From Terrimicrobiaceae bacterium (GTDB taxonomy: Bacteria > Verrucomicrobiota > Verrucomicrobiia > Chthoniobacterales > Terrimicrobiaceae), in the NCBI GenBank assembly GCA_044342325.1, contig JBIIPZ010000012.1:1-64000 (forward strand): 64,000 bases of DNA, written 5' to 3'. A program made the translations under genes and the position numbers. Below, in pieces: positions 1 through 24,298 of the stretch (its first letter is position 1; every line of letters starts with the position of its first letter). The notes under the pieces are model-generated. The model was not told where the DNA came from. It did no database searches and worked only from the letters and a program-made list of their open reading frames with translations.

Positions 1-36
1 GGCATACCCCACTATCAGCACACGAGAGGAAGTCCT

Positions 37-834
37 TCAATTCGGTTCATTGCGCTTCCTCGAAAGCGGTGCACGCCTCCCGAAGGTCAGGATGTCTGAT
101 CTTGCGAAGTTTGTGCTTTCTTCGGCGATATCGACATCCATGATCCGGCTGTTCGCGGCCTCAAGGTTTGTGCGGTTTACGGCCAAGATTTCCTGCGCAA
201 ATGTCATGCGAGACTGCTCCGCACCATTGATGGCACGAAGTTCCGCAATATCTTGAATTGCAATTTCAAGCGCAGCAGATGCAGTTGTTGCGTAGTCCAC
301 TGTGGAAATTCCACCCGTCAGCGCTAAAATGTCGGTATCCACCGCATCAAGGTCGGCTTTGGTAATTCCGGCCGTTTGAGTTCCATTCTCCGAGGTAACA
401 ACTGACAATGTTTGACCGCTTGCTGCAAAGAGCGAGATGCCATTGAACTCTTCCGCCAGTAAATCGGACATGTTGGCCTGCAACTCGACAAATTCCTTAT
501 GATAGAGTGCTGTATCGTTGGTTGACACGGTGTCAACCGAAGCCAATGTGGCCAACTCTGCCATGCGAAGGGCGATGGATGATGCCACTTGCAGAACGCC
601 ATCCTGCGATTGCAGGAAGGAAAGCGCATTTCCCACATTAGCAGATACGGCATCCGTGCGACGTATCGCCGCTGAGAGTTTCATTGAGACCGCCAAGCCG
701 CCTGGATCATCGACGGCGGAGTTGATTCGGTAACCGCTTGAAAGCCGGGTGAGGCTTTTTTGCAGATTGCGGTTGTTTTGGTTCAGATGGTAAGAAACCG
801 GCGAGGCGGCTCCTGTAGCATTAAGACTGATCAT
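37..834 (-). CDS. fliC: Short flagellin with aberrant C-terminus (last conserved D0 residues replaced)
   Basis: Flagellin N-terminal motif (RLSSGYRINSAVDDPGGLAVS) and C-terminal motif (GAEQSRM...LEAANSRIMDVDIAEE). It ends ILTFGRRAPLSRKRNEPN instead of ILQQAGTAMLAQANQ. Confidence 0.9.
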   Translation of the reverse strand: MISLNATGAASPVSYHLNQNNRNLQKSLTRLSSGYRINSAVDDPGGLAVSMKLSAAIRRTDAVSANVGNALSFLQSQDGVLQVASSIALRMAELATLASVDTVSTNDTALYHKEFVELQANMSDLLAEEFNGISLFAASGQTLSVVTSENGTQTAGITKADLDAVDTDILALTGGISTVDYATTASAALEIAIQDIAELRAINGAEQSRMTFAQEILAVNRTNLEAANSRIMDVDIAEESTNFARSDILTFGRRAPLSRKRNEPN

Positions 835-906
835 ATGATATTCCTTTCAATTTGCTTGCGGCTTCCGCGCCACGGACGGGTCGAAGTTTGAGTGCTCGGC
901 CTCACT
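835..906 (-). promoter_or_regulatory. Conserved flagellin 5' leader (AGTG-N8-CACT hairpin, GGA-hexaloop hairpin, GGA in Shine-Dalgarno)
   Basis: Sense strand AGTGAGGCCGAGCACT...GTGGC-GCGGAA-GCCGC...AAAGGAATATCAT-ATG; same layout as four other leaders. Confidence 0.75.
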
Positions 907-966
907 TTTGGATTTACACCAAATTTTTTTGTTTTTTAATAAGCTTTTGAAAAAACTAGGTTGAGA

Positions 967-2325
967 TTATAAAATGAGGTTGAACAAGGAACTGTTCATG
1001 GCCACATTAGATTGAGCGATGTAAGCCGTGCCCGCATCCTGCAGAAGCTTTAAACGGGAGAAGTTGACACTCTCGGCAGCAACATCTAAATCGCGAATCT
1101 CACCAAGGGATTCCGTGGCGTGATTCTTAAGCAAAGCATTGGAATCAATCAGATTTCTGATTCGGTTTTGCTTGGCACCATTTAGTGCGATGTATTGCGC
1201 GAGGGTGTCGAAATCGATTAATTCAGTTGTAATTAAAGAATCAACAATTCCATTAAGCGCAGCAGACATATCTGTGTTTGCGCTGGCTAGACTTCCGACC
1301 ACAGCCCCGCTTTGAGAAGTAAGTTGCCTTGTTTCAGTGTCAGAAGGGTCATTTGTAAACAAGTAAAAGTTTACATCATTAGATGATAGCTGTGATGCAA
1401 CACCATTTATTGTCACTCCAGGTTGAACTGGAGGCTCAGAAGGTTCATCTGTGAAGCCAATAACCACTTTTTTGGAGTCTGTATTTTGCCAACCGCCGGC
1501 CACATCAATTGCATCATAAACTCCATCTATCAGGGACTCTCCAAGGCCTCCAACGCCACCTGTAACTTGGCCCCGCAGAGAAGTAAGCTGAGAAGTAAGA
1601 TCTGGTATCGAGCTCACAAAAGCGCCTCCGTTTGGCGCTCTGAAGGTATGCCCTGAAAGGTCTAAACGATACCCAACAGCCTTTGCAGTCCAAGTAGATG
1701 CATTTAATCTAGTAGAGACAGAATTAATAAAACTGCTAATATTTAAGACCACATTATCAATGTATGGCCCCATACTTCCAGAAATATCTGCCAAAAAAAT
1801 CATCTCTAGTGGTTTAGGATCATTCTGCGTAGTAAGATTAAATTGAGATACTGTTTCAGCAGCACTATTGATTAAACCAGTATCGGCATCCATGGAATCC
1901 ATGTCGGAATCTGGCGAAAAGAGCCTTACTCCGTTGAACCTCTCATCACGAATTTGATAAATTTGCGCGATGAGACTGGCCTTCTCGGTGTCATAGATTG
2001 AGATATCCCCTTGTGACTTTATGACATCCTCTTTTTGGATTTCAATTTCTTGAATTCTCGCTAAGATACTCCCGACGCGCTTGAGGTAGGCTTCTTGGGT
2101 CTCTAAAAAGGAGAGCGTGTTTCCCAGGTTCTGACCGAGGGCCGATGACTGGAGCACCTTGTTATTAAACCTCGCCGAGACAGCTACTCCCGCCGGATCA
2201 TCGAAAGAGGAATTTATTCGCAATCCACTCGAAAGACGGGTTATGCTTTGCTTCAGGTTTTGGTTTGTTCTGGCTAAAGTCAATGAAGCAGACATGGGCG
2301 CAGCATTTGAACTTAAGTTGATCAT
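967..2325 (-). CDS. Flagellin with inserted von Willebrand factor A (MIDAS) domain
   Basis: Flagellin N-terminus (RLSSGLRINSSFDDPAGVAVS...FNGVRLF) and C-terminus (NGAKQNRI...IRDLDVAAES...LQDAGTAYIAQSN) flank a ~190-aa insert containing IFLADISGSM (DxSxS) and VVIGFTDEP. Confidence 0.88.
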   Translation of the reverse strand: MINLSSNAAPMSASLTLARTNQNLKQSITRLSSGLRINSSFDDPAGVAVSARFNNKVLQSSALGQNLGNTLSFLETQEAYLKRVGSILARIQEIEIQKEDVIKSQGDISIYDTEKASLIAQIYQIRDERFNGVRLFSPDSDMDSMDADTGLINSAAETVSQFNLTTQNDPKPLEMIFLADISGSMGPYIDNVVLNISSFINSVSTRLNASTWTAKAVGYRLDLSGHTFRAPNGGAFVSSIPDLTSQLTSLRGQVTGGVGGLGESLIDGVYDAIDVAGGWQNTDSKKVVIGFTDEPSEPPVQPGVTINGVASQLSSNDVNFYLFTNDPSDTETRQLTSQSGAVVGSLASANTDMSAALNGIVDSLITTELIDFDTLAQYIALNGAKQNRIRNLIDSNALLKNHATESLGEIRDLDVAAESVNFSRLKLLQDAGTAYIAQSNVAMNSSLFNLIL

Positions 2326-2362
2326 AAGAATTACTCTATATCATTTCTACAGAGCTCTGAGT

Positions 2363-2391
2363 TTCATGCGAGATCAGGAATCTCACATGAA
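2363..2391 (-). other. Stem-loop between the 288-aa flagellin and the vWA-flagellin (no U-tract)
   Basis: TTCATGCGAGAT-CAGGA-ATCTCACATGAA inverted repeat on the + strand; no poly-U follows on the minus strand. Confidence 0.55.
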
Positions 2392-2429
2392 GCCGGTTAA
2401 CCGTGATAGGTTGTAAAAAACAGATGTTT

Positions 2430-3296
2430 TCAGACCAGCAACCGCAAGAGCGACTGGTTGGACTGATTCGCCTGCGCAAGCATTGCTGTTCCAGCTTGCT
2501 GCAGGATGTTCAAGCGAGCCAAGTTCGCGCTTTCTGCTGCGATATCCACATCCGTGATGCGACCGTTGGCTGCTTCGAGATTGGTTTTATTCACCGCAAG
2601 CATATCGGCAGCGAAAGTAAGGCGCACTTGCTCAGATCCATTGGTGGCACGGAGCGTTGCCAATGTTTGGATGGCTTCCGTGATATTGGAAATAGCAGCA
2701 GCAGCTCCTGTTGCGGAAGCAAAGACATCATCTGCAACAATGTCTCCAGTCGAAGAGCTAGTTCCTACGTATCCACTAACAGCAGCTAAATCAAGCTGGG
2801 AAATACCAATAGTCTGCGCACCATCTTCAGAAGTAACAACTTGAAAAGTAACATTGTCTACAGTTGTGTTCAATGTTGCCGAAGAGGCAAATAGACTCAC
2901 GCCATTGAATTTCTCGCCGAGCATGGAAACGATTTGAGATTGTAACGATTCATATTCCGTCTGATACAATGCAGTATCGGTGGAAGACTTTGTAACGTCC
3001 GTCGCCAACTGAATAAGCTCTGACATACGGTTCACCACCTTCTCGGCGCTCTTTAAGACCCCGTCCTGTGTCTGTAACGCTGAAAGCGCATTGTTCACAT
3101 TGGCTTGGGTTGCCTCTGTGCGGCGGATTGAGGCTGACAACTTCATCGAGACTGCCAGACCACCAGCGTCGTCCATCGAAGAATTAATACGCGATCCGCT
3201 CGAAAGCCGGTTGAGGCTCCGTTGCAGGTTCACATTGGTGTTTGAGAGGTTATACGCCGCCGACGTGGACGCCGTGTTTGTGTTTAGACTGATCAT
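2430..3296 (-). CDS. fliC: Short flagellin (288 aa)
   Basis: Complete flagellin N- and C-terminal motifs with a minimal variable region. Confidence 0.96.
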   Translation of the reverse strand: MISLNTNTASTSAAYNLSNTNVNLQRSLNRLSSGSRINSSMDDAGGLAVSMKLSASIRRTEATQANVNNALSALQTQDGVLKSAEKVVNRMSELIQLATDVTKSSTDTALYQTEYESLQSQIVSMLGEKFNGVSLFASSATLNTTVDNVTFQVVTSEDGAQTIGISQLDLAAVSGYVGTSSSTGDIVADDVFASATGAAAAISNITEAIQTLATLRATNGSEQVRLTFAADMLAVNKTNLEAANGRITDVDIAAESANLARLNILQQAGTAMLAQANQSNQSLLRLLV

Positions 3297-3380
3297 TTTA
3301 GTATTCCTTTACTTTTATTTATTTGTGCAGCTTCCGCGCTGCTATCGGGCCGCTTTAACTTTAAGTGTTCGACCTCACTT
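3297..3380 (-). promoter_or_regulatory. Conserved flagellin 5' leader
   Basis: AAGTG-AGGTCGAA-CACTT...GCGGCCCG...GCAGC-GCGGAA-GCTGC...AAAGGAATACTAAA-ATG. Confidence 0.78.
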
Positions 3381-3400
3381 ATTTTTTTCTGATTGAATTT

Positions 3401-3428
3401 AACCACAGAGGACACGGAGAGCACGGAG
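3401..3428 (+). repeat. 9-bp-periodic intergenic repeat (CACRGAG type)
   Basis: AACCACAGAGGACACGGAGAGCACGGAG; related copies at 4545-4572, 45740-45767 and 55696-55721. Confidence 0.7.
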
Positions 3429-3566
3429 GGGGGGCTCCGTAGGCTTATGCACTTTAAGAAAAATACTTTTTTTATTTTACAATACTCACCAGGATATTGG
3501 CTTCCATGCTTCTATCCCGATGAAGATATTGTTCATTAAATTTTGTTAACGGTCTTTGAGAATTCC

Positions 3567-4433
3567 TCAGACGAGCAAGCGCAGGACGGATTGATTCGCC
3601 TGATTCGCTTGGGCAAGCATCGCTGTTCCAGCTTGTTGCAGGATGTTCAAGCGAGCCAAGTTGGCGCTTTCGGATGCAATATCTACATCTGTGATTCGAC
3701 CGTTTGCCGCTTCGAGGTTAGTTTTATTGATCGCAAGCATATCTGCTGCAAATGTCAAACGAACCTGCTCCGAACCATTGGTGGCACGAAGTTCTGCGAG
3801 AGTTTGAATAGCAAGCGTGATATTGCTAATGGCAGCAGCAGCACCTGTGGCTGATGTAAAGGCGTCCGCAGGATCAATCTCTCCAGCATTACCTGAAGCA
3901 GTTCCGACATACCCACCAACGGCTCCCAAGTCCAATTTAGAAATATCAATTCTCTGCTCACCATCCTGTGATGTAACAACTTCCAGCGAAGCATTATCGA
4001 TAGCCACATTTACTCCACCCGCAGTGAACAAGTTGATACCGTTAAACTGCTCACCAAGCATGGATCCTAGTTGGGACTGAAGGGATTGATACTCTGTTTT
4101 ATACAATGCCGTATCAGTTGTGGACTTTGTGACGTCTGCAGCCAACTGAATAAGCTCAGACATCCGGCTTACCACTTTCTCCGCTGTCTTTAATACTCCA
4201 TCTTGAGTCTCAAGGTAGGAAAGTGCGTTATTTACATTGGCTTGGGTGGCTTCCGTCCTACGGATGGAAGCTGACAACTTCATTGAGACGGCCAAACCAC
4301 CGGCGTCGTCCATCGAGGAGTTGATGCGTGAACCGCTCGAAAGCCGATTTAGGCTCCGTTGGAGGTTCACATTGGTGTTACCCAGGTTGTAGGCTGCAGA
4401 TGTTGCTGCAGTATTTGTGTTGATGCTGATCAT
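3567..4433 (-). CDS. fliC: Short flagellin (288 aa)
   Basis: Complete flagellin motifs; closest paralogue of 2430..3296. Confidence 0.96.
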   Translation of the reverse strand: MISINTNTAATSAAYNLGNTNVNLQRSLNRLSSGSRINSSMDDAGGLAVSMKLSASIRRTEATQANVNNALSYLETQDGVLKTAEKVVSRMSELIQLAADVTKSTTDTALYKTEYQSLQSQLGSMLGEQFNGINLFTAGGVNVAIDNASLEVVTSQDGEQRIDISKLDLGAVGGYVGTASGNAGEIDPADAFTSATGAAAAISNITLAIQTLAELRATNGSEQVRLTFAADMLAINKTNLEAANGRITDVDIASESANLARLNILQQAGTAMLAQANQANQSVLRLLV

Positions 4434-4512
4434 TTTAGTATTCCTTTACTTTTGTGTTTTTGCAGCTTCCGCGCTGCCTTCGGGCGATTTTTTCAAGTGT
4501 TTGGCCTCACTT
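4434..4512 (-). promoter_or_regulatory. Conserved flagellin 5' leader
   Basis: AAGTG-AGGCCAAA-CACTT...CGCCCG...GCAGC-GCGGAA-GCTGC...AAAGGAATACTAAA-ATG. Confidence 0.75.
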
Positions 4513-4638
4513 TTTGGAGTTGTTCCAAAATTCTTTTGTTTTTTCACCACGGAGAACACGGAGGTCACGGAGAAGTTTTTGGAGCTCATCTGACTGTGTT
4601 TTGTGGTTCATGGTTAAAATTTGGTTTTTTTGACTGAA

Positions 4639-4698
4639 TCGAAGCGGAGCGGAGAAAGACTGCCCTTGGCAGCCCATGGGGCGAGCGCAGCGAGTCAA
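4639..4698 (+). mobile_element. Short double-hairpin element ending GCGAGTCAA, inserted in a 9-bp repeat
   Basis: TCGA...CTGCC-CTT-GGCAG/GCCC-ATG-GGGC...GCGAGTCAA. Removing it restores TTGACTGAA TTGACGGAA TTAACAAAA, matching the uninterrupted repeat at 4975. Confidence 0.55.
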
Positions 4699-5576
4699 TT
4701 GACGGAATTAACAAAATTGTCGGATCGCTACGAGGTGGGAGGCTGCTAAGCGACAGAGCGGTTGCTTTTCGGCATTGCGATGTGTCTGTTCCTTGAGCTG
4801 AGTAAGCCCTTTGGTTATTGTGTTCCGGTTTTTCACCAGTTTTGTTTCCTTTTCGGTAATTCGTCTGTCTTTTAGTTCATTCTATTTTCCATCCGTGGAT
4901 TCCGGCTGTATGGCGTCCTTGCCTGGCCTAGGGTTATTGTTTTTGTGAAAGTGGGTTTGGAGGGGGCTGGTTTTTTGACAGAATTGACGGAATTAACAAA
5001 ATGGCAGGATTTCCGTGAGATAGGATACTGGTATGAGGCAGTGCTGTGGCTTTTCGGCTTTGCAACGCGCCTCTTCCTTAAGCTCTATAAGCTCTTTGGT
5101 TATTTTTTTCCGGTTTTTCACCAGTTTTGTTTCCTCTTCGGTAATTCGCCCGTCGTTTAGTTCATTCTGTTTTCCATCCGTGGATTGCGGCTGTATGGCG
5201 TCCTTGCCTGGCCTAGTTTAATTGTTTTATTGGGAAATTAAGTTCAGAGGGGTTGGTGGTTTTTTTGACAGAATTGACAGAATTGACAGAATTGACAGGA
5301 TTGACGGGTTTAAAAAAATGGCAGGATTTCCGTGAGATAGGATGCCGGTATGAGGCAGTGCTGTGGCTTTTCGGCTTTGCAGCGCTTTAGGCGGTCTTTG
5401 GTTATTTTGTTCCGGTTTTTCACCAGTTTTGTTTCCTTTTCGGTAATTCGCCTGTCGTTTAGTTCATTCTATTTTTCATCCGTGGATTCCGGCTGTGTGG
5501 CGTCCTTGCCTGGCCTAGGGTTATTGTTTTATTGGGAAATTAAGTTTAGAGGGGTTGGTGGTTTTTTTTCAGAATT
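4699..5576 (-). ncRNA. Three tandem ~290-bp non-coding units rich in GGA motifs; candidate CsrA-binding (CsrB/RsmY-like) RNA
   Basis: Near-identical ~135-bp cores at 4810-4944, 5095-5228 and 5397-5530. The minus strand has GGC-AAGGAC-GCC in all copies, TCC-ACGGAT-GGA in two, and further GGA motifs in A-rich context. The repeat is certain; the RNA function is inferred. Confidence 0.45.
5265..5309 (+). repeat. Tandem 9-mer (TTGACAGAA)n
   Basis: TTGACAGAA x3, then TTGACAGGA and TTGACGGGT. Confidence 0.85.
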
Positions 5577-5637
5577 ATGCGATCATCAGGAGCTTGGAGA
5601 CTGTAATCGTCATTGCGGTTACTTTCATCCAGCCTGG

Positions 5638-5669
5638 ATTGGGGCGGGGTTTAAATCCCCCGCCCCAAT
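5638..5669 (-). other. Strong GC stem-loop 3' of flagellin, no U-tract (stability element or partial terminator)
   Basis: ATTGGGGCGGGG-N8-CCCCGCCCCAAT; homologous stem at 6735-6761. Confidence 0.65.
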
Positions 5670-5688
5670 ACCTCGGTTACCCTGATTC

Positions 5689-6558
5689 TTAGCTAATCAG
5701 TCGGAGGATGGACTGGGTAGATTGGTTCGCCTGGGCGAGCATCGCTGTGCCGGCTTGCTGCAGGATGTTGTAGCGGGCGAGCTTCGTGCTTTCGTCGGCA
5801 ACATCCACATCGAGGATGCGGCTGTTTGCAGACTCGAGGTTGGTTTTGTTCACTGCGAGCATGTCCGCAGCGAAGGTCAACCGGGACTGCTCGGCACCGT
5901 TGTTGGCGCGGAGTGTGGCTAGGTTTTGTATAGCGTCTTGGATGTAACCAACTGCATCATTAGCGTCAGCAGTGGTGCTAATGTCCATATTACTGCCCGA
6001 ATTTGTGTTACAGATATCAAAGACGATCTGATTCAAATCCACTTGTGTGATACCAACAGTCTGATTGCCATCGTGTGATGTAACCACTGTGAGAGTGGAA
6101 CTCTGGCTGATAACTGCATTGTTGGCAGAGGAACTTGCCCCCTCGCTAAACAGACTAATGCCATTGAACTCTTCATCGAGCATCAAAGTGAGCTGGCCCT
6201 TCAGTTGGGTCAGTTCCGTGTTGTAAAGAGCGAGGTCGCTGGTAGATTTGGTCACATCTTGAGCCAGCGTGGCGAGTTCTGACATGCGGTTGAGAATTTT
6301 ATCCGCTGTCTTGATAACTCCGTCCTGAGTTTGAAGGAAGGCGATGGAGTTGTTGACATTGGCCAGGGTGGCGTCTGTGCGGCGGATGGAAGCACTCATC
6401 TTCATGGACACGGCGAGGCCTCCGGCGTCGTCGTAGGATGAGTTGATGCGTGAACCGCTGGAGAGCCTGTTGAGGCTACGCTGGAGGTTCACATTGGTGT
6501 TGCTGAGGTTGTAGGCAGCCGATGTGGCTGCTGAGTTGGTGTTGATTACTACTGACAT
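5689..6558 (-). CDS. fliC: Short flagellin (289 aa)
   Basis: MSVVINTN...RLSSGSRINS and RILDVDVADES...QQAGTAMLAQANQ. Confidence 0.97.
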   Translation of the reverse strand: MSVVINTNSAATSAAYNLSNTNVNLQRSLNRLSSGSRINSSYDDAGGLAVSMKMSASIRRTDATLANVNNSIAFLQTQDGVIKTADKILNRMSELATLAQDVTKSTSDLALYNTELTQLKGQLTLMLDEEFNGISLFSEGASSSANNAVISQSSTLTVVTSHDGNQTVGITQVDLNQIVFDICNTNSGSNMDISTTADANDAVGYIQDAIQNLATLRANNGAEQSRLTFAADMLAVNKTNLESANSRILDVDVADESTKLARYNILQQAGTAMLAQANQSTQSILRLIS

Positions 6559-6630
6559 ATCCTTTGTCTTTCTATGGTGCGAAGTCCGTTTCGCTTTCGG
6601 GCCGCTTTGGTTCAGTGTTCGACCTCACTG
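6559..6630 (-). promoter_or_regulatory. Conserved flagellin 5' leader with canonical ANGGAN hexaloop
   Basis: CAGTG-AGGTCGAA-CACTG...GCGGCCCG...GCGAA-ACGGAC-TTCGC...AAAGGAT-ATG. Confidence 0.8.
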
Positions 6631-6734
6631 GTTTGACTAAATTTTATTGGACAGAATTACTGAATTTCAGAGTTGGAGGCTTTGCTTTTGTCTCAACTCT
6701 GTGGTTTGAACAGCTACTTTCGATGAGCCTGTAT

Positions 6735-6761
6735 TGGGGCGGGGTATGGTCCCCCGCCCCA
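6735..6761 (-). other. Strong GC stem-loop 3' of flagellin, no U-tract
   Basis: TGGGGCGGGG-N7-CCCCGCCCCA. Confidence 0.65.
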
Positions 6762-6782
6762 GTTACTCAGTTACCCTAATTC

Positions 6783-7664
6783 TTAGCTGATCAGTCGGAG
6801 AATCGACTGGGTCGATTGGTTCGCTTGAGCGAGCATCGCGGTGCCGGCCTGCTGCAGGATGTTGTAGCGGGCGAGTTTTGTGCTCTCGTCGGCGACATCC
6901 ACATCGAGGATGCGGCTGTTGGCGGCCTCGAGGTTCGTTTTGTTCACTGCGAGCATGTCCGCAGCGAAGGTCAACCGAGACTGCTCGGCGCCGTTGTTGG
7001 CGCGGAGTGTTGCCAAGTCTTGAATCGCGTCTTGGATATAATCCACGGCATTTTGAGCTGCTGTCGTGGTGGAGATATCCATATTGGAGCTGGAACCTGT
7101 GTTGGTGATGTCAAACACGATCTGGTTCAAGTCGACTTGAGTGATACCAACTGTTTGGTTGCCATCGTGTGATGTAACCACCGTGAGGGTTGGGTTGACA
7201 TCGATGGCGAGACCAGTTGCGGAGGCAGAGCCGCCGGCCGCGACGCCCTCTGAGAAGAGGCTAATGCCATTGAATTCTTCACTCAACATCAAGTTGAGCT
7301 GGCCCTTCAATTGTGTCAGTTCCGTGTTGTAGAGAGCGAGGTCGTTTGTAGATTTCGTCACATCTTGAGCGAGTGTGGCGAGTTCCGACATGCGGTTGAG
7401 GATTTTATCTGCGGTTTTGATGACTCCGTCCTGGGTTTGCAGGAAGGCGATGGAATTGTTGACATTGGCCAAGGTGGCGTCGGTGCGGCGGATGGAAGCG
7501 CTGAGCTTCATCGACACAGCGAGGCCGCCGGCGTCGTCGTAGGCTGAGTTGATGCGTGAACCGCTGGAGAGGCGATTAAGGCTTCTCTGGAGGTTGACGT
7601 TGGTGTTGCTGAGGTTGTAGGCAGCCGATGTGGCGGCTGAGTTGGTGTTGATTACTACTGACAT
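6783..7664 (-). CDS. fliC: Short flagellin (293 aa), first gene of the array
   Basis: Complete flagellin motifs; termini almost identical to 5689..6558. Confidence 0.97.
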   Translation of the reverse strand: MSVVINTNSAATSAAYNLSNTNVNLQRSLNRLSSGSRINSAYDDAGGLAVSMKLSASIRRTDATLANVNNSIAFLQTQDGVIKTADKILNRMSELATLAQDVTKSTNDLALYNTELTQLKGQLNLMLSEEFNGISLFSEGVAAGGSASATGLAIDVNPTLTVVTSHDGNQTVGITQVDLNQIVFDITNTGSSSNMDISTTTAAQNAVDYIQDAIQDLATLRANNGAEQSRLTFAADMLAVNKTNLEAANSRILDVDVADESTKLARYNILQQAGTAMLAQANQSTQSILRLIS

Positions 7665-7736
7665 ATCCTTTGTCTTTCTATGGTGCGAAGTCCGTCTCGC
7701 TGGCGGGCCGCTTTGGTTCAGTGTTCGACCTCACTG
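7665..7736 (-). promoter_or_regulatory. Conserved flagellin 5' leader with canonical ANGGAN hexaloop
   Basis: CAGTG-AGGTCGAA-CACTG...GCGGCCCG...GCGAG-ACGGAC-TTCGC...AAAGGAT-ATG. Confidence 0.8.
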
Positions 7737-7760
7737 GGGGAGTTTCCTCCGTTAGGTTAT

Positions 7761-7788
7761 CTATCGGCAGACAATTGATGGGGCTTTA
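7761..7788 (-). promoter_or_regulatory. Sigma28 (FliA/SigD)-type promoter
   Basis: Minus strand TAAA-N16-GCCGATAG, ~100 nt upstream of the first flagellin ATG; known consensus TAAA-N15/16-GCCGATAA. Confidence 0.85.
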
Positions 7789-7901
7789 GAAAAAATTTAA
7801 AAAAATTTTCTCTATGTCCGCAGAGCCTCTCTGGGATTGGGTCTGCGGACGGACGAGCCGCAGGAAAAACGAGGTGTCAGAATCGAGAAGGAGAAAAAAT
7901 C

Positions 7902-9101
7902 TCAGAGCTTGTGGCCCATTTTTTTCTTTTTGGTCTCGAGATAGCGGGCGTTGTGAGGGTTTGCGACGGAGCGGATGGGGAGCTGCTCGACGATTTGGAG
8001 GTCGTAGGCCTCGAGGCCGACGACTTTGCGGGGGTTATTGGTGAGGAGGCGGATTTTGTGGATGCCGAGGTCAGCGAGGATTTGCGCGCCGAGGCCGTAG
8101 TCGCGGAGGTCCATGGGGAAACCAAGGCGCTCGTTGGCTTCGACGGTGTCGAGGCCCTGCTCCTGCAATTTGTAGGCGCGGATTTTGGGTCCGAGGCCGA
8201 TGCCACGGCCTTCCTGGCGCATGTAGAGGAGAACTCCGGCGCCTTCTTTTTCGATGCGCTGCATGGCCTGGTGGAGCTGGGATCCGCAGTCGCAGCGGCG
8301 AGAGGCGAAGACATCGCCCGTGAGGCATTCGCTGTGAACCCGCACCAGGGCTGGCTTTGCGGCGGAGATTTCGCCTTTGACGAGCGCGATGTGGTGCATG
8401 CCATCAACAAGTGAGCGATAGAGGTGGAGGTTGAAATCCCCATAGTCAGTGGGCATGTGGACCGTTTCTTCGTGCTCGACGAGCTTCTCACCTTTGCGGC
8501 GGTGGGCGATGAGATCTTGGATGGAACACATCTTGAGCCCGTGTTTCTTTTTGAAGCGGACAAGATCCGGCAGGCGGGCCATGGAGCCGTCCTCTTTCAT
8601 GATTTCGCAAATGACTCCGGAGGCATCGAGACCTGCGAGGCGGGCGAGATCGACGGCGGCCTCGGTGTGGCCAGCGCGGCGCAGAACACCGCCAGCCTTG
8701 GCTTGGAGGGGAAATACATGCCCTGGCTGAACAAGGTCGGAGGGTTGTGCCTTGGGGTTGGCGAGCAGACGGATCGTGGCGGCGCGGTCTTTCACGCTGA
8801 TGCCTGTGGTCACGCCCTTGGCGGCATCCACCGAGACGGTGAAATCGGTTTTAAAAAACTCTCGGTTCTGTGCAACCATTCGCTGAAGGCCGAGACTGGC
8901 AGCGCGCTCCTCGGTAACTGGCGCGCAGATGAGCCCACGACCGAACTTTGCCATGAAATTGATAGCAGCGGGAGTGACCTTGGCGGCAGCCATGAGGAGA
9001 TCGCCCTCGTTCTCGCGGTCGGCGTCGTCGGTGACAACCACCATGCGTCCTCGACGGATGTCGGCAATGACTTCGGGAATCGGATCGAATGGTGTTTTCA
9101 T
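7902..9101 (-). CDS. ribBA: Bifunctional DHBP synthase / GTP cyclohydrolase II
   Basis: DDADRENEGD, RRAGHTEA, RVHSECLTGD and CDCG motifs. Confidence 0.97.
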   Translation of the reverse strand: MKTPFDPIPEVIADIRRGRMVVVTDDADRENEGDLLMAAAKVTPAAINFMAKFGRGLICAPVTEERAASLGLQRMVAQNREFFKTDFTVSVDAAKGVTTGISVKDRAATIRLLANPKAQPSDLVQPGHVFPLQAKAGGVLRRAGHTEAAVDLARLAGLDASGVICEIMKEDGSMARLPDLVRFKKKHGLKMCSIQDLIAHRRKGEKLVEHEETVHMPTDYGDFNLHLYRSLVDGMHHIALVKGEISAAKPALVRVHSECLTGDVFASRRCDCGSQLHQAMQRIEKEGAGVLLYMRQEGRGIGLGPKIRAYKLQEQGLDTVEANERLGFPMDLRDYGLGAQILADLGIHKIRLLTNNPRKVVGLEAYDLQIVEQLPIRSVANPHNARYLETKKKKMGHKL

Positions 9102-9140
9102 GTGTGAAATCGATAGCACAAGGCTCTCGAGCGGGGAAGA

Positions 9141-9590
9141 TCAGCGCGCTTCAGAGAGGACAAGTTTCAGAATTTTCTGCTGGGTTACGGCCATTTTTTT
9201 GGCATCCGGCTCCGAGATGTCATCGAAGCCGGAGAGGTGCAGGAGACCGTGGATGATGTAGAGGGCGAGTTCCTGGGTTGTGCTGTGGCCAAACTCTGGA
9301 GCGCGGGCTGCGGCGACCGAGGCGCAGACCAAAATCTCGCCGTAGGGAAAAGTGATGACATCCGTTGCGCCGCGAATGTCCAGAAAGTCGCGGTGCACTT
9401 TCGCCATGGCGCGGGAGCCCAGAATGCTGATCTCGACACCCGACAGAGCAGCCAGCTCAGCGTTGTTTTTTTTTGCGAGAGTGAGGCAGTGGGGAATGGC
9501 TGCCTCTGCCAGGCACTCCAGAAGCTCGCGATCGTAGGCAGTGGAGCGGGCGTTGTGGGATAGAGATGTTTTCAGCAGCGGCGACCTCAC
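9141..9590 (-). CDS. ybeY: rRNA maturation RNase YbeY
   Basis: TDVITF and HGLLHLSGFD motifs; lies in the phoH-HD-ybeY operon. Confidence 0.9.
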   Translation of the reverse strand: MRSPLLKTSLSHNARSTAYDRELLECLAEAAIPHCLTLAKKNNAELAALSGVEISILGSRAMAKVHRDFLDIRGATDVITFPYGEILVCASVAAARAPEFGHSTTQELALYIIHGLLHLSGFDDISEPDAKKMAVTQQKILKLVLSEAR

Positions 9591-11167
9591 GCAGCGGATT
9601 TTTGTTCGCGTTTTTCCGGTGTGGAGCGTTCCTCGCGTTTCGGGTAGGCGATGCGAGCGTGGAGCATGTTGACGAGCGAGAAGCGGAAGCTGTCGGCGAT
9701 TTTCCAGATCTCGGCGATGGTCAGAGGAGCCTCGTCGAGTTGTCCCTCATCGAGTCGCGCTTTGATGATATTGCGGATGAGATCGTCGATGCGTTGTGGC
9801 GTGGGGCGGTCGAGACTGCGCGAGGCGCTTTCGATCGAGTCGGCGAGGCTCACGATGGCGGCCTCCTTCGTCTGCGGGCGGGGTCCGGGGTAGCGGAAAC
9901 TCTCCTCGCTCACCTCGGGAATATCCTCCTCGCGCATGTTCATGATTTTTCCGCCAAGGCGAGCATCCTCCTGTTGCTGCAGGGCACGCTGGTAGAAATA
10001 CGAAACCATGGAGGTGCCGTGATGCTGGCTGATGACATCGATGATCTCGGCGTTGAGCTTGTTTTTGAGGGCCAGATCCACGCCCTCCTTCACATGGGAG
10101 ATGATAATGAGAGCACTCATCGTCGGAGTGAGGTCGTCGTGGGGATTCAAGCCGTGGGGGATGTTTTCGGTGAAGTAGTGAGGTTTTACGACCTTGCCGA
10201 TGTCGTGGAAATACGAGGCGACGCGGCAGATTGTGGGGTTCGCTCCGACGACTTCTGCGGCGGCTTCCGAGAGGTTCGCGACGGCCAGGCTGTGATGGTA
10301 GGTGCCCGGTGCCTCAAGGCTGAGACGCTTGAGGAGCGGGTGGTTCAGGTCGCTCATCTCCAACCACGAGATGTCGGTGGTGATTTTGAAAACATGCTCG
10401 AGCATTGGCAGGATGCCGCTGACGACGATGGCTGTGGCAATGCCGGTGGCAAAGGCCGCCAAGCTCTGCCATCCAATCATGGCCCAGTCGGTCTGTGAGG
10501 GCACTTCCCAAATTACTGGGCCGATCTGGCCAAACGCGGCGGCGAGAATCCAAGTGGCGAGCCCCACATAGACACCGGCCCGCACGAGGCGACTGCGGCG
10601 ACGGACTTGCAGCGTCACAAAAACACCGATGAAACCGGTGATCAGCGAAATCACCAAAAACACCGGGTCGATGCGGCCGACAAGGAGCGAGCCCCAGAGG
10701 CTGGAAAAAACGGCGGCGTAGAGCCCGTGATTCCGCCCTAGGAGCACGGAGAGCACAAGAGGTGCGAAGGCGTAGGGAATCAGAAGCGGAGCGAGTTGGA
10801 GGTCGAGTGATCCTGCAGCGGCCTGACTGAGGAGGATTTTGATGACAGCCAACTGCGCGAGTAATGTTCCCAACACGAGGCAGAGGAGGGAATTTTGCCG
10901 AAATGTCTGGGGATGGTTGATCCAGAGTTGCGCAACAGCCGTGGCAAAAATGAGCAGGCAGAGCAGGAACTTTTTGGCGGGTTCATCCTGCTGGCCAGTG
11001 AAAATGAGCGCCGCGAGGCCGAAGATGAAAGCGGCGAGCAGAACGGCACGGATCGGCCAGCCATTTTGAAGGGCAGAGAGAAAATTGCTCTCCTCGACCT
11101 GACGACGCCGCTTGCTGGAGGAAAGCCCCTTCCAGACGAGTCGCCAGCGTTTGAAGATTCCGAACAT
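9587..11167 (-). CDS. 7TM-HD membrane phosphohydrolase (YqfF/PgpH family)
   Basis: Multiple TM segments, then APGTYHHS, FHDIGK, HHGT and LADSIE. Confidence 0.92.
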   Translation of the reverse strand: MFGIFKRWRLVWKGLSSSKRRRQVEESNFLSALQNGWPIRAVLLAAFIFGLAALIFTGQQDEPAKKFLLCLLIFATAVAQLWINHPQTFRQNSLLCLVLGTLLAQLAVIKILLSQAAAGSLDLQLAPLLIPYAFAPLVLSVLLGRNHGLYAAVFSSLWGSLLVGRIDPVFLVISLITGFIGVFVTLQVRRRSRLVRAGVYVGLATWILAAAFGQIGPVIWEVPSQTDWAMIGWQSLAAFATGIATAIVVSGILPMLEHVFKITTDISWLEMSDLNHPLLKRLSLEAPGTYHHSLAVANLSEAAAEVVGANPTICRVASYFHDIGKVVKPHYFTENIPHGLNPHDDLTPTMSALIIISHVKEGVDLALKNKLNAEIIDVISQHHGTSMVSYFYQRALQQQEDARLGGKIMNMREEDIPEVSEESFRYPGPRPQTKEAAIVSLADSIESASRSLDRPTPQRIDDLIRNIIKARLDEGQLDEAPLTIAEIWKIADSFRFSLVNMLHARIAYPKREERSTPEKREQKSAA

Positions 11168-11168
11168 T

Positions 11169-12140
11169 TTAGATTCTGCTTTCCCGTGAGCCCCGGTGGT
11201 TTTTGTAGGCCAGGATCACGGCCTGGACGAGTGGATGCCGCACGACATCCTTCTCGGTGAAAAAGTGCATTCCTATGCCATCGACATCCCTGAGTGCGGC
11301 GACGGCTTCTACAAGGCCGCTGAGCTTGTTTCGTGGAAGATCAATCTGTGTGACATCTCCCGTCACCACGCAGCGAGAGCCAAGGCCGAGGCGGGTAAGG
11401 AACATGAGCATCTGCTCGGCGGTGGTGTTTTGAGCTTCGTCGAGGATGACAAAAGACCCGCTCAAGGTGCGTCCGCGCATGTAGGCGAGCGGAGCGATTT
11501 CGATGATGTTTTTATCCATGAGCTTCTGCAGCTCATCCGGCTCCAGAAGGTCGTGCAGCGCATCGTAGAGAGGACGCAGATAGGGAAGAATTTTTTCCTG
11601 CAGGTCACCGGGCAGGAAACCCAGAGCCTCGCCTGCTTCGACGGCTGGCCTGGTGAGAATGAGTCGTTTCACTTTTTCCTGCTTGAGAGCGGCTACGGCG
11701 GATGCCACAGCAAGGTAGGTTTTTCCGGTTCCTGCTGGGCCGACGCCGAAAGTGATGTCGTGGGACTGGATCGCCTGAACATAGGTTTTTTGTCCAGCGG
11801 TGCGAGGGACGACCGGGGGCTTGCGTGGGGAGCACTGGATACGGATATCAATGAGGCTGGCGAGGGATTCTGCAGAGCCTGGCCCCTTTGAAGCCTCCAA
11901 AGCGTGCTCGAATTCTTGGCGATGGATGGTGATGCCCCGCTTGACGGCGGCATGGAGTTGCTCGAGGGCATCGCGCGCACGCTCGACTGCAACCTTTTCG
12001 CCCTCCACGCGAATCCATCCATCGCGCGCGGTGATGCGGACTTCGAGGCGATGTTCCAACTCGTGGAGCAGCTTGGGGTCGCCTCCGTAAACGGCCTGCG
12101 CGGTGCGGGCGTTCTCGAATTCCAGCGTGAGGGTTTCCAT
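11169..12140 (-). CDS. phoH: PhoH family ATPase
   Basis: GPAGTGKT, RPAVEAGE and DEAQN motifs. Confidence 0.96.
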   Translation of the reverse strand: METLTLEFENARTAQAVYGGDPKLLHELEHRLEVRITARDGWIRVEGEKVAVERARDALEQLHAAVKRGITIHRQEFEHALEASKGPGSAESLASLIDIRIQCSPRKPPVVPRTAGQKTYVQAIQSHDITFGVGPAGTGKTYLAVASAVAALKQEKVKRLILTRPAVEAGEALGFLPGDLQEKILPYLRPLYDALHDLLEPDELQKLMDKNIIEIAPLAYMRGRTLSGSFVILDEAQNTTAEQMLMFLTRLGLGSRCVVTGDVTQIDLPRNKLSGLVEAVAALRDVDGIGMHFFTEKDVVRHPLVQAVILAYKNHRGSRESRI

Positions 12141-12146
12141 CGAGAA

Positions 12147-12569
12147 CTACTTGTAGGCGTAAACCAACGCCCAGCCCGTGCGCTCTTCAGGAGATTTGTG
12201 AACGGTCACGATGGCGTAGTAGGTGCCGGTGCGCGGTGGCTCAACACGCACGGCGGAGAGGCGTCCCGCGCGGGTGGTCTCGACATTGATGAGGTTGCCT
12301 TTGGAGTCGTAGATATTTACTGAGAGCACGGCGCCCTTCACATCAGTGCCAAGGCAGAACCAATACTCATTGCCCTTGAAAAGCTGTGCCTGCACGGCTT
12401 GCTGATCCTTTACACCCAGGTCCCCTCCCCATGCGTCTTCGCGGACGCTGAAGCCCTTCTTCACATAGGGCGATGCGGCCTCGTAGGCGAAGGAAAGGGC
12501 ATCATCCACATAGGCCCACGCTGTGGCGGCCATCAAGAGAGTGAGCAGTAATGAGAGAGCTTTTTTCAC
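12147..12569 (-). CDS. Hypothetical exported protein
   Basis: Signal peptide (VKKALSLLLTLLMAATAWA); in operon; GTG start assumed. Confidence 0.75.
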   Translation of the reverse strand: MKKALSLLLTLLMAATAWAYVDDALSFAYEAASPYVKKGFSVREDAWGGDLGVKDQQAVQAQLFKGNEYWFCLGTDVKGAVLSVNIYDSKGNLINVETTRAGRLSAVRVEPPRTGTYYAIVTVHKSPEERTGWALVYAYK

Positions 12570-12576
12570 GGTGGTC

Positions 12577-13392
12577 TCAGGCTCCCTTGGAGGCAATGGC
12601 TGCGACGGTATCGCGCGTCATCTTGTGAATACGGGTGACATTCTCGGAGGGAATGGCATCACCCTCGCCGTCTCCGATCAAAGGCGCGATAGCAGCGAGG
12701 AGCTTGCGGATACGATCCACGAGATCGTCCTCGGCGAGGCGTTTGTTCGAGAGGTTATCGAGTTTTTTGGTGAAAAAACTCACCAATGCGGGCTGATGAA
12801 GAAGCTCGGCCGAGTCGGTGGTGTAGTTTTTGCGGATGATCGAAGTCAGAACCTCCGTGCCACGAATCCAACCGCCCACGCTCACGAGCTGGGCGAGGTC
12901 GTCGTCACCGAGTTCCAGCATAGCGTCCTTCACATCGCTGAGTGCTCCGTCGAATTCCTTGCGGACGGCGAGCCAATCCTTCACCTCCGCCTTGTCAGTG
13001 ATGCTTTTGCTTCGCTCGAGAACGGCTTTTTCGACATTGATAGCCTTGGAGAGTGTCAGCACGCGGCGGCCGATGTCTTTCACCTTCTCGGAATCCTCGG
13101 CTTCCACAGCTACGAAACCCTCAGCGATCACGGTGCCGAGCAGAAGGGCCACTTGAGCACGATTGCCACTCTGCCGCCCCAACGAGTCGCGCAATTCCGA
13201 GCGCCAGTTGGGATTTCCCAGCTTATCGAGGACGATAAAAACCTCACTCGGCACGGGAACCACGACATCGTCAATCGACTGGGCGGGAAATGAGGAGAGG
13301 TCCACCGCCTCGGGTGGCTTCTGCGCGTGAAGCGGGGTGGTGGCAGCGGCAAGAAGACCAGCGGCCAGCACCGCGTTCAGAATGTTCGGCAT
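12577..13392 (-). CDS. Hypothetical exported helical protein
   Basis: Signal peptide ending LHA; typical codon usage; in operon. Confidence 0.78.
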   Translation of the reverse strand: MPNILNAVLAAGLLAAATTPLHAQKPPEAVDLSSFPAQSIDDVVVPVPSEVFIVLDKLGNPNWRSELRDSLGRQSGNRAQVALLLGTVIAEGFVAVEAEDSEKVKDIGRRVLTLSKAINVEKAVLERSKSITDKAEVKDWLAVRKEFDGALSDVKDAMLELGDDDLAQLVSVGGWIRGTEVLTSIIRKNYTTDSAELLHQPALVSFFTKKLDNLSNKRLAEDDLVDRIRKLLAAIAPLIGDGEGDAIPSENVTRIHKMTRDTVAAIASKGA

Positions 13393-13455
13393 TTTCAAAA
13401 TTTCGGCTTTGTTGTGCGTGTGAGGTCGGTTTAGAACTCACACCTACAAATTGGA

Positions 13456-14460
13456 ATGAATCGCGATAGATTACAACATCTTCTTACGGCCGCCTCCTCG
13501 CGCAAGCTCCTCGTCGTGGGCGATGTGATGCTCGACGAATTCGTATGGGGACGCGTTTCCCGCATCTCACCGGAGGCCCCGGTGCCGGTGGTGGAGGTGG
13601 AAAAGGAAACCTCCTATCCCGGTGGCGCAGCGAATGTGGCCCGCAATCTGCGCCCCTTCTGCGCCGGCGTCCACTTGTGCGGGCTCGTCGGAGAGGATGT
13701 CCATGCCGGTCGGCTCCGGGAGTTGCTTGCGGAGGAGTTGATATCCACCGACGCCCTCGTGGCCGATGCCGGCCGCTCGACTATCGTTAAAACCCGCATC
13801 GTCGCCCGCCAGCAGCAGGTCGTGAGGGTGGACCGCGAGCGCCGCGCGAAGGTCTCCACCGAAGTGCTCGAACGCTCATGCGCCGCCATCGCCGACATCC
13901 TACCGACGGTGGATGCCGTGATTTTCGAAGACTATGGAAAAGGCTTCCTCGGGCAGGCGTTGAAGGACCGCGTCACCGAAATGGCCCGCAGCGCCGGCAA
14001 ATACATCTCAGCCGACCCGAATCCCACCAATCCCCTCGACTGGCAAGGAGTGGATCTTCTCAAGCCCAACCGCTCCGAAGCCTTCGCCATGGCAGGAATC
14101 TCGGATAACGGCGCCGGACCGAATCCCCTCGCCGACGCCCCCCTGCTCGAAGTCGGCGGCATTCTTTTGAAAAAATGGGATCTCCCCGCCTTGCTGGTGA
14201 CCTTGGGTGAACACGGTATGATTTTGTTCCAGCGGGGCGAGGCTCCGTATCACACGCCGACCCGTGCGCGCGAGGTTTTCGATGTCTCTGGCGCAGGCGA
14301 CACGGCGATTGCCCTACACACGCTCGCTGTCTGTGCGGGGGCAACGCCCAGCGAGGCCGCTGAAATTTCCAACCACGCCAGCGGCGTCGTCGTCGCCAAA
14401 CTCGGCACGGCCACCCTCACCGCTGAGGAACTCCTCCACGCCTTTTCCAAAAATGCCTAA
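13456..14460 (+). CDS. D-glycero-beta-D-manno-heptose-7-phosphate kinase (HldE kinase domain / RfaE1)
   Basis: VGDVMLD, RISPEAPVPV and DVSGAGDT motifs. Confidence 0.95.
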   Translation: MNRDRLQHLLTAASSRKLLVVGDVMLDEFVWGRVSRISPEAPVPVVEVEKETSYPGGAANVARNLRPFCAGVHLCGLVGEDVHAGRLRELLAEELISTDALVADAGRSTIVKTRIVARQQQVVRVDRERRAKVSTEVLERSCAAIADILPTVDAVIFEDYGKGFLGQALKDRVTEMARSAGKYISADPNPTNPLDWQGVDLLKPNRSEAFAMAGISDNGAGPNPLADAPLLEVGGILLKKWDLPALLVTLGEHGMILFQRGEAPYHTPTRAREVFDVSGAGDTAIALHTLAVCAGATPSEAAEISNHASGVVVAKLGTATLTAEELLHAFSKNA

Positions 14461-14980
14461 GCGCCGAGCCATCTTCCTCGACCGCGATGGCACACTCATG
14501 GAGGAGGTGAACTACTGCAACGACCCCGCCACCGTGCAGGCCATACCGGGAGCTGGGGAAACACTCGCCCTCCTGCGCGAACAAGGCTGGCTGACCGTCA
14601 TCGTCACCAACCAAAGCGGCCTCGCCAAAGGCTTCATCACTCCCGCTCAATACGAAGCCGTTAATGCTGAGTTGCTCCGCCAACTCGGAGGCGGCATCGA
14701 CGCCATTTACTTCTGCCCAGACCACCCGGACCAACCCACCGAACGCCGGAAACCAAAACCCGGCATGCTCCTCGAAGCCGCCGCAGACCTCGAGATCGAC
14801 CTCTCCGGCAGCTGGATGATCGGCGACAAACCCATCGATGTGGAGTGCGGCCGCGACGCCGGCTGCCGCACCATACTCGTGAGAACCGGCTACGGATCAG
14901 CGCAATCCAATACAAACGCGGACTTTGCGATGAAGGATGTCACAGAAGCCCTGCAACATATCATCGGGCTGGGCGAGTAG
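14453..14980 (+). CDS. gmhB: Heptose-1,7-bisphosphate phosphatase
   Basis: FLDRDGTL, TNQSG, RKPKPGM and IGDK motifs. Confidence 0.94.
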   Translation: MPKRRAIFLDRDGTLMEEVNYCNDPATVQAIPGAGETLALLREQGWLTVIVTNQSGLAKGFITPAQYEAVNAELLRQLGGGIDAIYFCPDHPDQPTERRKPKPGMLLEAAADLEIDLSGSWMIGDKPIDVECGRDAGCRTILVRTGYGSAQSNTNADFAMKDVTEALQHIIGLGE

Positions 14981-15133
14981 GCTGCAATTCATTCGTCAGC
15001 AATCGGAATAGCCTCGTTTAACTCGAGCGTTTCACGCCGCACCTCGGAGGTATAGGCGGCAAGCACATCTTGATAAAACGGTTTGACCTGAGAGGAAGGA
15101 TGTTCCATCTCACTCTCGATTTCACCGTCGATG

Positions 15134-16212: not shown

Positions 16213-16272
16213 GAGTTTGTTATTTTCGGGGTTCGGGAGCCGGCAAGTCAAGCCATCCCCCGTGTTCAAAAT

Positions 16273-19256: not shown

Positions 19257-19304
19257 GGATGGACGCAAACTCAACACCCCCACCCGCCTCGTGGGAAGCC
19301 CAAA

Positions 19305-19973: not shown

Positions 19974-20036
19974 GCAAAAAACATATCCGGAAACTCCAGA
20001 AATCCAGCACCGGAAGGTGAAGACCCCATGCGGGTC

Positions 20037-21725: not shown

Positions 21726-21730
21726 GTTGG

Positions 21731-24286: not shown

Positions 24287-24298
24287 GCGATTGTTCCC

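Follow-up and report, generated by a model that had tools for sequence, protein, structure and literature searches.

Six tandem flagellin genes of a freshwater Terrimicrobiaceae bacterium, a predicted CsrA-type leader before five of them, and a flagellin with a predicted integrin-like domain

The window analysed here, the first 64 kb of contig C9 in a 2.93-Mb Terrimicrobiaceae (Verrucomicrobiota) assembly of 78 contigs and 86% completeness, opens with six tandem flagellin genes (Fla1 to Fla6), five of which carry a shared, structured leader with two GGA sites. The same genome encodes an adjacent fliW-csrA pair and, judged from sequence and by analogy with studied flagellin leaders, the FliW-CsrA partner switch is the best-supported mechanism for control of the array and probably the one at work. 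The remaining gene, Fla5, is without the leader and is modelled to bear an integrin-like von Willebrand factor type A (vWA) domain with a metal ion-dependent adhesion site (MIDAS). The public runs that hold the window best are lake and freshwater metagenomes, and the array is likely to be the principal flagellin locus of a flagellated Terrimicrobiaceae bacterium from fresh water, whose genome was assembled from a metagenome. In what follows, G000 denotes this genome, C a contig, L030 and L031 the loci of two close relatives, and G014, G049 and G051 related genomes; coordinates without a contig label are those of the window, and the features of the array lie on its minus strand unless stated otherwise.

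The evidence that carries this reading is the leader itself. Thirty-four non-identical flagellin upstream regions align across a conserved leader of 75-89 nt, which in the RNAalifold prediction forms a long-range helix of 7 bp (P1) and a hairpin of 5 bp (P2). When the 12 pairs are followed through the 34 leaders, 98.0% of the 408 cells are paired and 50 cells are changed on both sides, giving a covariation score of 0.393; shuffles average 0.225, with none of 500 reaching the observed score, and slid partners give no more than 0.094. Three of the five pairs in the P2 hairpin show compensatory changes. In 32 sequences neither the CGGA of the P2 hexaloop nor the AA-GA of the ribosome site varies, and the ribosome site, AAAGGA, follows the hexaloop CGGA by about 25 nt. 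A covariance model of the leader (R1) recovers seven strong matches in this genome, namely the five array leaders and those of two further flagellin genes on C20 and C44, and one weak match at a gene on C13 (34.8 bits). In the window these leaders precede Fla1 (7662-7752, R1 match 7662-7738, with an additional 5′-proximal hairpin GGAG-GAAA-CUCC), Fla2 (6556-6632, 82.7 bits), Fla3 (4431-4514, 86.4 bits, preceded by a 5′ hairpin UUUUGGA-ACAAC-UCCAAAA), Fla4 (3294-3382, 94.4 bits) and Fla6 (832-909, 70.3 bits, with P1, the P2 hairpin and its CGGA loop, and the AAAGGA ribosome site). No R1 match precedes Fla5 even with the filters off. The shared structured leader proposed in an earlier note, which was made from the letters of the window, is therefore borne out for five of the six genes, with two covarying helices. 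Across 151 sampled genomes of the order, R1 matches ten including this one (six of the seven in the genus and four elsewhere), which together represent three families, and window 1-9000 gives no Rfam match at E ≤ 1. Given this absence from Rfam and an occurrence in three families of the order, the leader could be put forward as a new cis-regulatory RNA motif of Verrucomicrobiota.

The partners expected of such a leader are encoded in the same genome. Contig C24 carries, in one direction, flgF/G-flgA-flgH-flgI-(an open reading frame, ORF, without family)-flgN-flgK-flgL-fliW-csrA, with csrA at C24:604-759 and fliW at C24:807-1163, 47 bases apart and both above the profile cut-off. Since csrA and fliW stand at the end of a flgK-flgL late operon, we infer the known partner switch. 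On other contigs, fliA adjoins flhA (C37; FliA 231 bits, above cut-off; FHIPEP/FlhA 851.9 bits), fliS is found on C39 and rpoN on C44, and rod genes are present. The adjacent fliW-csrA pair, fliA, flhA and fliS therefore make FliW-CsrA control of flagellin translation the best reading. The hexaloop CGGA and the AAAGGA ribosome site are predicted to form the two-site operator of a CsrA dimer. Unsecreted flagellin would hold FliW, leaving free CsrA to block translation of each leader-bearing flagellin mRNA, and secretion of flagellin would free FliW, by which CsrA would be inactivated. In this way the switch would couple the synthesis of many paralogues to export. The export genes, on whose presence a flagellar interpretation of the array had turned, are thus encoded as part of a full flagellar apparatus, along with fliA, csrA and fliW, and a non-flagellar reading was rejected given the export apparatus, rod proteins, FliS and flgH, flgI, flgK, flgL and flgN of the same genome. 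A second FHIPEP (FlhA-like) gene at G000:C36:39208-41202 (760 bits) could be part of another type III-type export system.

The two-site GGA layout of the leader is like that of known CsrA-controlled flagellin leaders, and the translational tuning proposed for the array is therefore well founded by homology, the fliW-csrA pair adding to it. In the hag leader of Bacillus subtilis, as here, one GGA lies in the loop of a hairpin and another at the ribosome site. Campylobacter jejuni flaB is sigma54-dependent, and here a sigma54-type flagellin gene lies elsewhere in the genome (C12). The B. subtilis Hag-FliW-CsrA system is further alike in having fliW-csrA at the end of a flgK-flgL late operon and a flagellin driven by sigma28/sigmaD (PMC6529632). 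It is unlike the present system in that the operator there serves one flagellin gene and here at least seven, that the leader here has the extra long-range helix P1, and that two flagellins here, Fla5 and the one on C12, are without a leader; the lineage, Verrucomicrobiota, is also unstudied in this respect. The C. jejuni flaA leader presents two ANGGA loops with 21 nt between them; the second covers the ribosome site, CsrA protects both, compensatory changes back the structure, and the flagellin mRNA can itself titrate CsrA (Dugar et al. 2016, PMC4894983). The leader described here likewise pairs a hexaloop ANGGA with a ribosome-site ANGGA, about 21-26 nt apart, in a structure backed by compensatory changes, whereas the flaA leader has 45 nt and two adjacent stem-loops and ours has 75-89 nt. 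Non-coding tandem units such as those of the Fla2-Fla3 spacer are not described in the passages of the C. jejuni study that were consulted (PMC4894983). FliW-CsrA control has been worked out with one or two flagellins, and here one covarying operator stands before at least seven paralogues with two left out. The array is thus a natural test of how a one-protein homeostasis switch might handle a composite filament.

The array itself consists of six minus-strand ORFs at 37-7664, each with Flagellin_N and Flagellin_C above the Pfam cut-offs. These are Fla1 (6783-7664, 293 aa), Fla2 (5689-6558, 289 aa), Fla3 (3567-4433, 288 aa), Fla4 (2430-3296, 288 aa), Fla5 (967-2325, 452 aa) and Fla6 (37-834, 265 aa). 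Six tandem flagellins with two close pairs had been claimed for this stretch, and the pairs are Fla1/Fla2 at 90.1% and Fla3/Fla4 at 82.0% identity. The GC content at third codon positions (GC3) is 0.70 in Fla1, near that of the neighbouring housekeeping gene, and drops to 0.41 in Fla5, the lowest of the six. Three more flagellin genes lie elsewhere in the genome (C20:13282-14163, C44:34942-35790 and C12:66836-67993), and rpoN is found about 1.1 kb upstream of the C44 gene. The C12 flagellin, of about 385 aa, has no CsrA-type leader; a perfect sigma54 consensus TGGCACGGGGTTTGCT (TGGCAC-N5-TTGC) lies about 70 nt upstream of it. A very divergent relative of 247 aa is encoded at C13:19219-19962, with 23-25% identity to the flagellins and no Pfam match at E ≤ 0.01.

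Fla5 differs from its neighbours in the outer domain, at about residues 170-365 (bases 1231-1818). The vWA fusion that had been noticed in the letters falls below the Pfam threshold (VWA_CoxE, E 0.065, 13.1 bits against a cut-off of 26.4), as does that of the orthologue at L031 (VWA_2, 24.2 bits against 27), yet structure and conservation uphold it. An AlphaFold model (mean predicted local distance difference test, pLDDT, 81.1; predicted template-modelling score 0.55) places an alternating strand-helix domain between the D1 helices, with most ten-residue blocks of the outer domain at pLDDT 80-95. Foldseek matches this domain to integrin beta I-like and alpha I domains (E about 1e-7, probability 1.00), including the CD11b I domain (8ce6; template-modelling score by target 0.61). 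The central 226 residues retrieve 21 metagenomic homologues, all of them flagellins or fragments, with PF00092 precomputed on 3 of the 21. D180, S182 and S184 (the DxSxS motif), T292 and D293 are invariant in 16 aligned homologues, and homologues that keep the MIDAS residues are 50-95% identical to Fla5 over the whole protein. Fla5 is thus modelled with an integrin-like vWA/MIDAS fold. In the ESM Atlas, two mainly Bacillota clusters (151 and 125 members) combine Flagellin_N, Flagellin_C and VWA in 42% and 82% of their members, and the vWA-flagellin architecture therefore recurs outside this lineage.

We found no description of a vWA flagellin in the flagellin outer-domain literature searched. 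The main text of PMC11532411 contains no 'vWA', 'von Willebrand' or 'integrin', and PMC12826043 mentions vWA proteins, none of them flagellins. The nearest parallel is flagellinolysin, in which a foreign globular domain likewise occupies the hypervariable region between the D1 helices and a minor paralogue functionalises the filament; the domain there is a metallopeptidase and in Fla5 an adhesion-type vWA/MIDAS fold, and the main text and one supplementary file of that study make no mention of vWA (PMC5595980). The spacer between Fla4 and Fla5, of 104 nt, is 90% conserved in L030 and L031 and contains a 12-13 bp hairpin (2363-2391; fold z -3.84, 0 of 200 shuffles as stable). It holds no GGA ribosome site in the relatives, and the Fla5 ribosome site here is weak or absent. 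The absence of a leader and of a conserved GGA ribosome site, together with a GC3 of 0.41, suggests a minor subunit that escapes CsrA. The earlier note's description of Fla5 as a minor functionalised subunit is accordingly plausible as to function, from the vWA fold, and as to low amount it draws on the missing leader, the weak or absent ribosome site and the lowest GC3, the amounts themselves being what we infer. Fla5 probably escapes CsrA control and would be a low-abundance, metal-dependent adhesive subunit. More broadly, the vWA flagellin family suggests that flagella of lake bacteria may double as metal-dependent adhesins.

How the array is transcribed is less settled than how it would be translated. 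A sigma28 (FliA) promoter lies upstream of Fla1 at 7759-7793 (CTAAAG, 15 nt, GCCGATAG) and scores 34.5 bits with a weight matrix built from eight CTAAAG-N15-GCCGAT promoters, three from this genome and five from relatives, all at -125/-126 from the ATG. An equal motif stands at this distance before the C20 and C44 flagellin genes and five genes of relatives, and Fla1 would be transcribed from this late promoter. The second-best minus-strand score (13.3 bits) falls inside the Fla4 coding region and no other intergenic site exceeds 6 bits, so that the single recognisable sigma28 promoter earlier placed at 7761-7788 is upheld. The matrix scan recognised no sigma28 promoter before Fla2-Fla6, the sequence upstream of the Fla2 leader included. 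In G051 a sigma28 site (24.6 bits) is found only at the first of three tandem flagellin genes, and none of at least 14 bits is present on L030 (8 flagellin starts) or L031 (7), both of which begin inside arrays. A strict sigma54 pattern is absent from 39 upstream regions of relatives. Consensus scans were not diagnostic, with 10 sigma70-like sites in 1-8200 (7.8 ± 2.9 expected), 8 terminator-like sites in the same interval (10.6 ± 3.5 expected), and 32 terminator-like sites, mostly within genes, in 8001-28000 (20.3 ± 4.7 expected).

Two further kinds of element bear on transcription. GC-only hairpins without a U tract follow Fla1 (6715-6760, 10 bp, z -3.85) and Fla2 (5620-5665, 10-12 bp, repeat family D15, z -3.49); with the one after Fla4 they reach fold z scores of about -3.5 to -3.85, and none of 200 shuffles is as stable. 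The U-less stem-loops noted between genes are therefore real at these three places, and the minus strand of 1-8200 has no terminator-like site with a T run. Such hairpins may act as terminators, as pause sites or as stabilisers of the RNA. Upstream of the leaders, blocks conserved across relatives comprise TCCAATAAAATTTAG (Fla2-type), a triple CTCCGTG (Fla3- and Fla4-type) and CATAAAGTGCATAAGC (Fla4-type). Dispersed repeats with a 9-nt period (three CTCCGTG, or TTCTGTCAA in tandem) occur at 4540-4580, 3420-3460 and 5260-5320 and on many contigs; both types recur across the genome and the genus, frequently just upstream of flagellin leaders. Read on the plus strand, the tandem TTCTGTCAA repeat presents TTGACA-16-CAAAAT, which is promoter-like.

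Neither here nor in relatives do the interior genes have a sigma28 promoter, which is compatible with read-through, and we lean, short of calling it probable, toward partial read-through that starts at the sigma28 promoter and passes the U-less hairpins. In its full form this would be one sigma28 transcript of about 7.7 kb through all six genes, cut into hairpin-bounded segments that set subunit ratios through stability and translation, which we hold to be quite conceivable. Only one sigma28 promoter is present in 8 kb, the interior genes of relatives are likewise without such a site, hairpins follow the stop codons, the sense strand has no T-run terminator, and GC3 declines from 0.70 in Fla1 to 0.41 in Fla5. 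One RNA-library contig also extends from the Fla2 3′ end, past the hairpin, into unit sequence; being a single contig at depth 7.6 from a library that may hold DNA, it is weak evidence. A precedent is found in Stenotrophomonas maltophilia, whose fliC1-fliC2-fliC3 are likewise tandem paralogous flagellins and are reported as one operon, although with three genes and, in the abstract, no CsrA-type leader (PMC8998449). Set against a continuous transcript are the 1255-nt Fla2-Fla3 spacer and the strong GC hairpins, which could stop polymerase, the conserved blocks upstream of interior leaders, which suggest separate regulatory DNA, and the fact that the first genes of the L030 and L031 arrays are unseen. 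The array could instead be a row of monocistronic genes with U-less hairpins as terminators and only translational control in common, an arrangement we hold to be equally conceivable; that the interior genes have unrecognised promoters of their own is a serious possibility in its own right. The conserved blocks TCCAATAAAATTTAG, triple CTCCGTG and CATAAAGTGCATAAGC could then be regulatory, Fla3- and Fla6-type leaders begin with a 5′ hairpin at the same place as the sigma28-driven ones, and the TGGCAC-N5-TTGC motif of the C12 flagellin, with rpoN present, indicates another sigma factor in use. In Caulobacter, Vibrio and Sinorhizobium, loci with several flagellins are for the most part transcribed one gene at a time. 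However, no sigma70, sigma28 or sigma54 consensus-like site is conserved at a constant spacing from the interior leaders, and part of the conserved blocks consists of dispersed repeats that have copies elsewhere in the genome. Taken together, the conserved upstream blocks and the hairpins directly behind the stop codons agree just as well with separate, unrecognised promoters and with terminators.

Several points weigh against the combined picture of FliW-CsrA control with partial read-through. The blocks upstream of Fla3- and Fla4-type leaders could be promoters, which would weaken the lean toward read-through. RNA-library contigs of two freshwater studies overlap pieces of all six genes and the tandem units; they come from mixed communities at ≥ 90% likeness, may contain DNA, and show presence only, with no strand, ends or levels. 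Both RNA runs have zero cover at 7801-8100 and low cover over the units, the uncovered part being no evidence in either direction. An adapter-like loose end at 7729, present in one X19 contig, was set aside as a single record, and depth of cover did not enter any ranking of the genes. We know of no counterpart to P1 and its conserved 15-17 nt loop in described CsrA leaders, and these elements could serve another factor. No Pfam match to FlgM at E ≤ 0.1 was found in this 86%-complete genome, and the sigma28 checkpoint is for this reason only partly documented. The low abundance proposed for Fla5, finally, derives from sequence features only.

The Fla2-Fla3 spacer holds a further candidate for RNA-level control, three tandem units of about 285-302 nt each at 4640-5530, with anchors at 5516, 5214 and 4929 that give periods of 302 and 285 nt. 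In each unit the conserved stretch is the 5′ ~125 nt; the 3′ part varies and carries 9-nt TTCTGTCAA repeats. The conserved stretch includes two hairpins, GGC-AAGGAC-GCC and UCCA-CGGA-UGGA, as well as an AAGGAA site followed by a GTG start. Of 41 genomes of the genus, 8 carry full units, without exception as 2-4 tandem copies inside flagellin arrays; two more genomes have diverged two-copy units upstream of a flagellin leader. A triplicated GGA-rich unit had been noticed here, and both the three copies and the enrichment are confirmed, the sense strand of the unit region holding 21 GGA against 14.5 ± 2.6 in dinucleotide shuffles (4 of 300 as high). In the G051 unit region the figures are 28 against 18.9 (0 of 300). 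Sense-strand GGA is enriched in the unit regions of six of seven genomes and antisense GGA in none, though the genomes are kin and the tests not independent. The sense/antisense counts of ANGGA in the seven regions are 14/5, 6/0, 8/0, 23/1, 11/0, 10/1 and 7/4. Taken alone, the 125-nt cores hold 5-6 GGA against about 3 in mononucleotide shuffles (p 0.05-0.2, not significant), of which about two per conserved block fall in predicted loops (AAGGAC, CGGA). The units show no clear thermodynamic signal (fold z -0.8 to -2.2 sense, +0.5 to -1.5 antisense), no compensatory change in any of 16 predicted pairs, no Rfam match at E ≤ 1, and no recognised promoter or terminator. An account of the units as decayed leaders was rejected, R1 with filters off yielding only 6.8 bits (E 4.2) inside a unit. 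A conserved small protein is not supported, since the ORF behind the AAGGAA site has 8-79 codons in 21 copies, changes frame in some of them and shows likeness over only about the first 13 residues.

With GGA enrichment and loops, yet without covariation or thermodynamic signal, a role of the units as CsrA decoys is therefore live but unproven, and we regard it as doubtful. On such an account the units would be mini-gene-like modules that titrate CsrA, each having a hairpin of the CANGGANG type and, as its start site, AAGGAA. They would be transcribed with or beside the flagellin mRNAs as a cis RNA sponge of variable copy number alongside FliW, and sponge and FliW together would set the output of a many-flagellin filament that displays a vWA adhesin subunit exempt from control. 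Compared with the CsrB and RsmZ sponges, the units are alike in repeated GGA on one strand, some of it in small loops, and in the CANGGANG-like UCCA-CGGA-UGGA. They are unlike these sponges in having no Rfam match, covariation or recognised promoter or terminator, in lying inside a flagellin array, in the start codon behind AAGGAA, and in belonging to an organism that already has FliW. The GGA-enriched units offer a specific candidate RNA antagonist of CsrA in an organism that has FliW.

At the far end of the array, Fla6 is truncated after residue 245, its last 20 residues being encoded by an insertion sequence. Window 1-99, at the contig start, is 98-100% identical to the ends of C13, C73, C49, C47, C18 and C24, seven contig ends in total. 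The shared end is always the same one, up to 126 nt inward, with unique flanks immediately beyond it; the contig of the window ends inside the element, whose interior is not assembled in this genome. In G049:C22 the same repeat lies inside a contig and abuts a Transposase_29 fragment (E 7e-28). Homology to L030 (91%) and L031 (96%) stops exactly at base 99, and the orthologues there are intact at 272 aa. The multicopy end with unique flanks, the homology stop and the 272-aa orthologues together indicate that Fla6 lost its last 27 codons to an insertion sequence, whose end at 1-99 replaces them. Its Flagellin_C match covers profile positions 4-65 of 86 only, and a search of the rest of the assembly with the relatives' sequence did not recover the lost 3′ end. 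By its sequence, Fla6 is inactivated. The altered C-terminus, formerly read as a variant subunit, is present in the letters but is an insertion-sequence junction at the contig start.

Comparison with relatives bears on the origin of the locus and on two further explanations of it. From the units through to Fla6 the window is collinear with L030 and L031, which have 8 and 7 flagellins against 6 here. Window 2675-99 aligns with L030 7650-10234 at 91%, with the breakpoint inside paralogous coding sequence. The relatives also have an extra long flagellin absent from the window (L030:4395-5834, L031:2785-4242; 479-485 aa, with an unidentified outer domain). In G014, another species, ribBA lies directly upstream of a sigma28-driven flagellin gene, and its RibBA is 96% identical. 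Judging from this synteny, the locus is inherited within the genus and its copy number has varied via recombination between paralogues. Copy number and breakpoint, the interior genes without a recognised promoter and the tolerance of a broken Fla6 would also suit a mostly silent or weakly expressed reservoir for antigenic or mechanical variation by recombination, rather than a composite filament. We consider this improbable, as the other five ORFs are intact, leader and ribosome site are kept with compensatory changes, RNA-library contigs fall on pieces of every gene, and the Fla5 homologues retain the MIDAS residues at 50-95% identity. A chimeric or mis-assembled region is more improbable by far. 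The array does stand at the contig start, with tandem and dispersed repeats and a GC content lower than that of its neighbours. However, a DNA contig of run X1, which may be the source sample, spans 7708-8151 without difference, and this, with the ribBA-flagellin linkage in G014, upholds continuity near 7800, where a break had been considered; the only repeat junction is at bases 1-99. The syntenic arrays at L030 and L031 and the ribBA-Fla1 linkage in G014 thus show the locus to be neither chimeric nor evidently foreign. Of the claim that the region is AT-richer, the composition stands (GC 0.44-0.52 over 1-8000 against 0.56-0.61 in the adjoining sequence), and a foreign origin does not, since relatives of the same genus have syntenic arrays.

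The remainder of the window is of other content. Upstream of the array lie ribBA, ybeY, an HD-domain protein gene and phoH, and a family search found no flagellar family among the 51 further ORFs, in agreement with the earlier statement that these 64 kb hold no other flagellar gene. A homologue of GPP34 (Golgi phosphoprotein 3 family; E 5e-42) is encoded at 19305-19973 and adjoins two tandem PilB/GspE-type ATPases at 20037-23425. Farther along, 49000-55314 and 60595-63956 encode a 2104-aa RTX-repeat protein and, nearby, an HlyD-type membrane-fusion protein and an ATP-binding cassette (ABC) exporter, which make up a type I secretion set, and an IS200-like transposase domain is found at 58479-59366.

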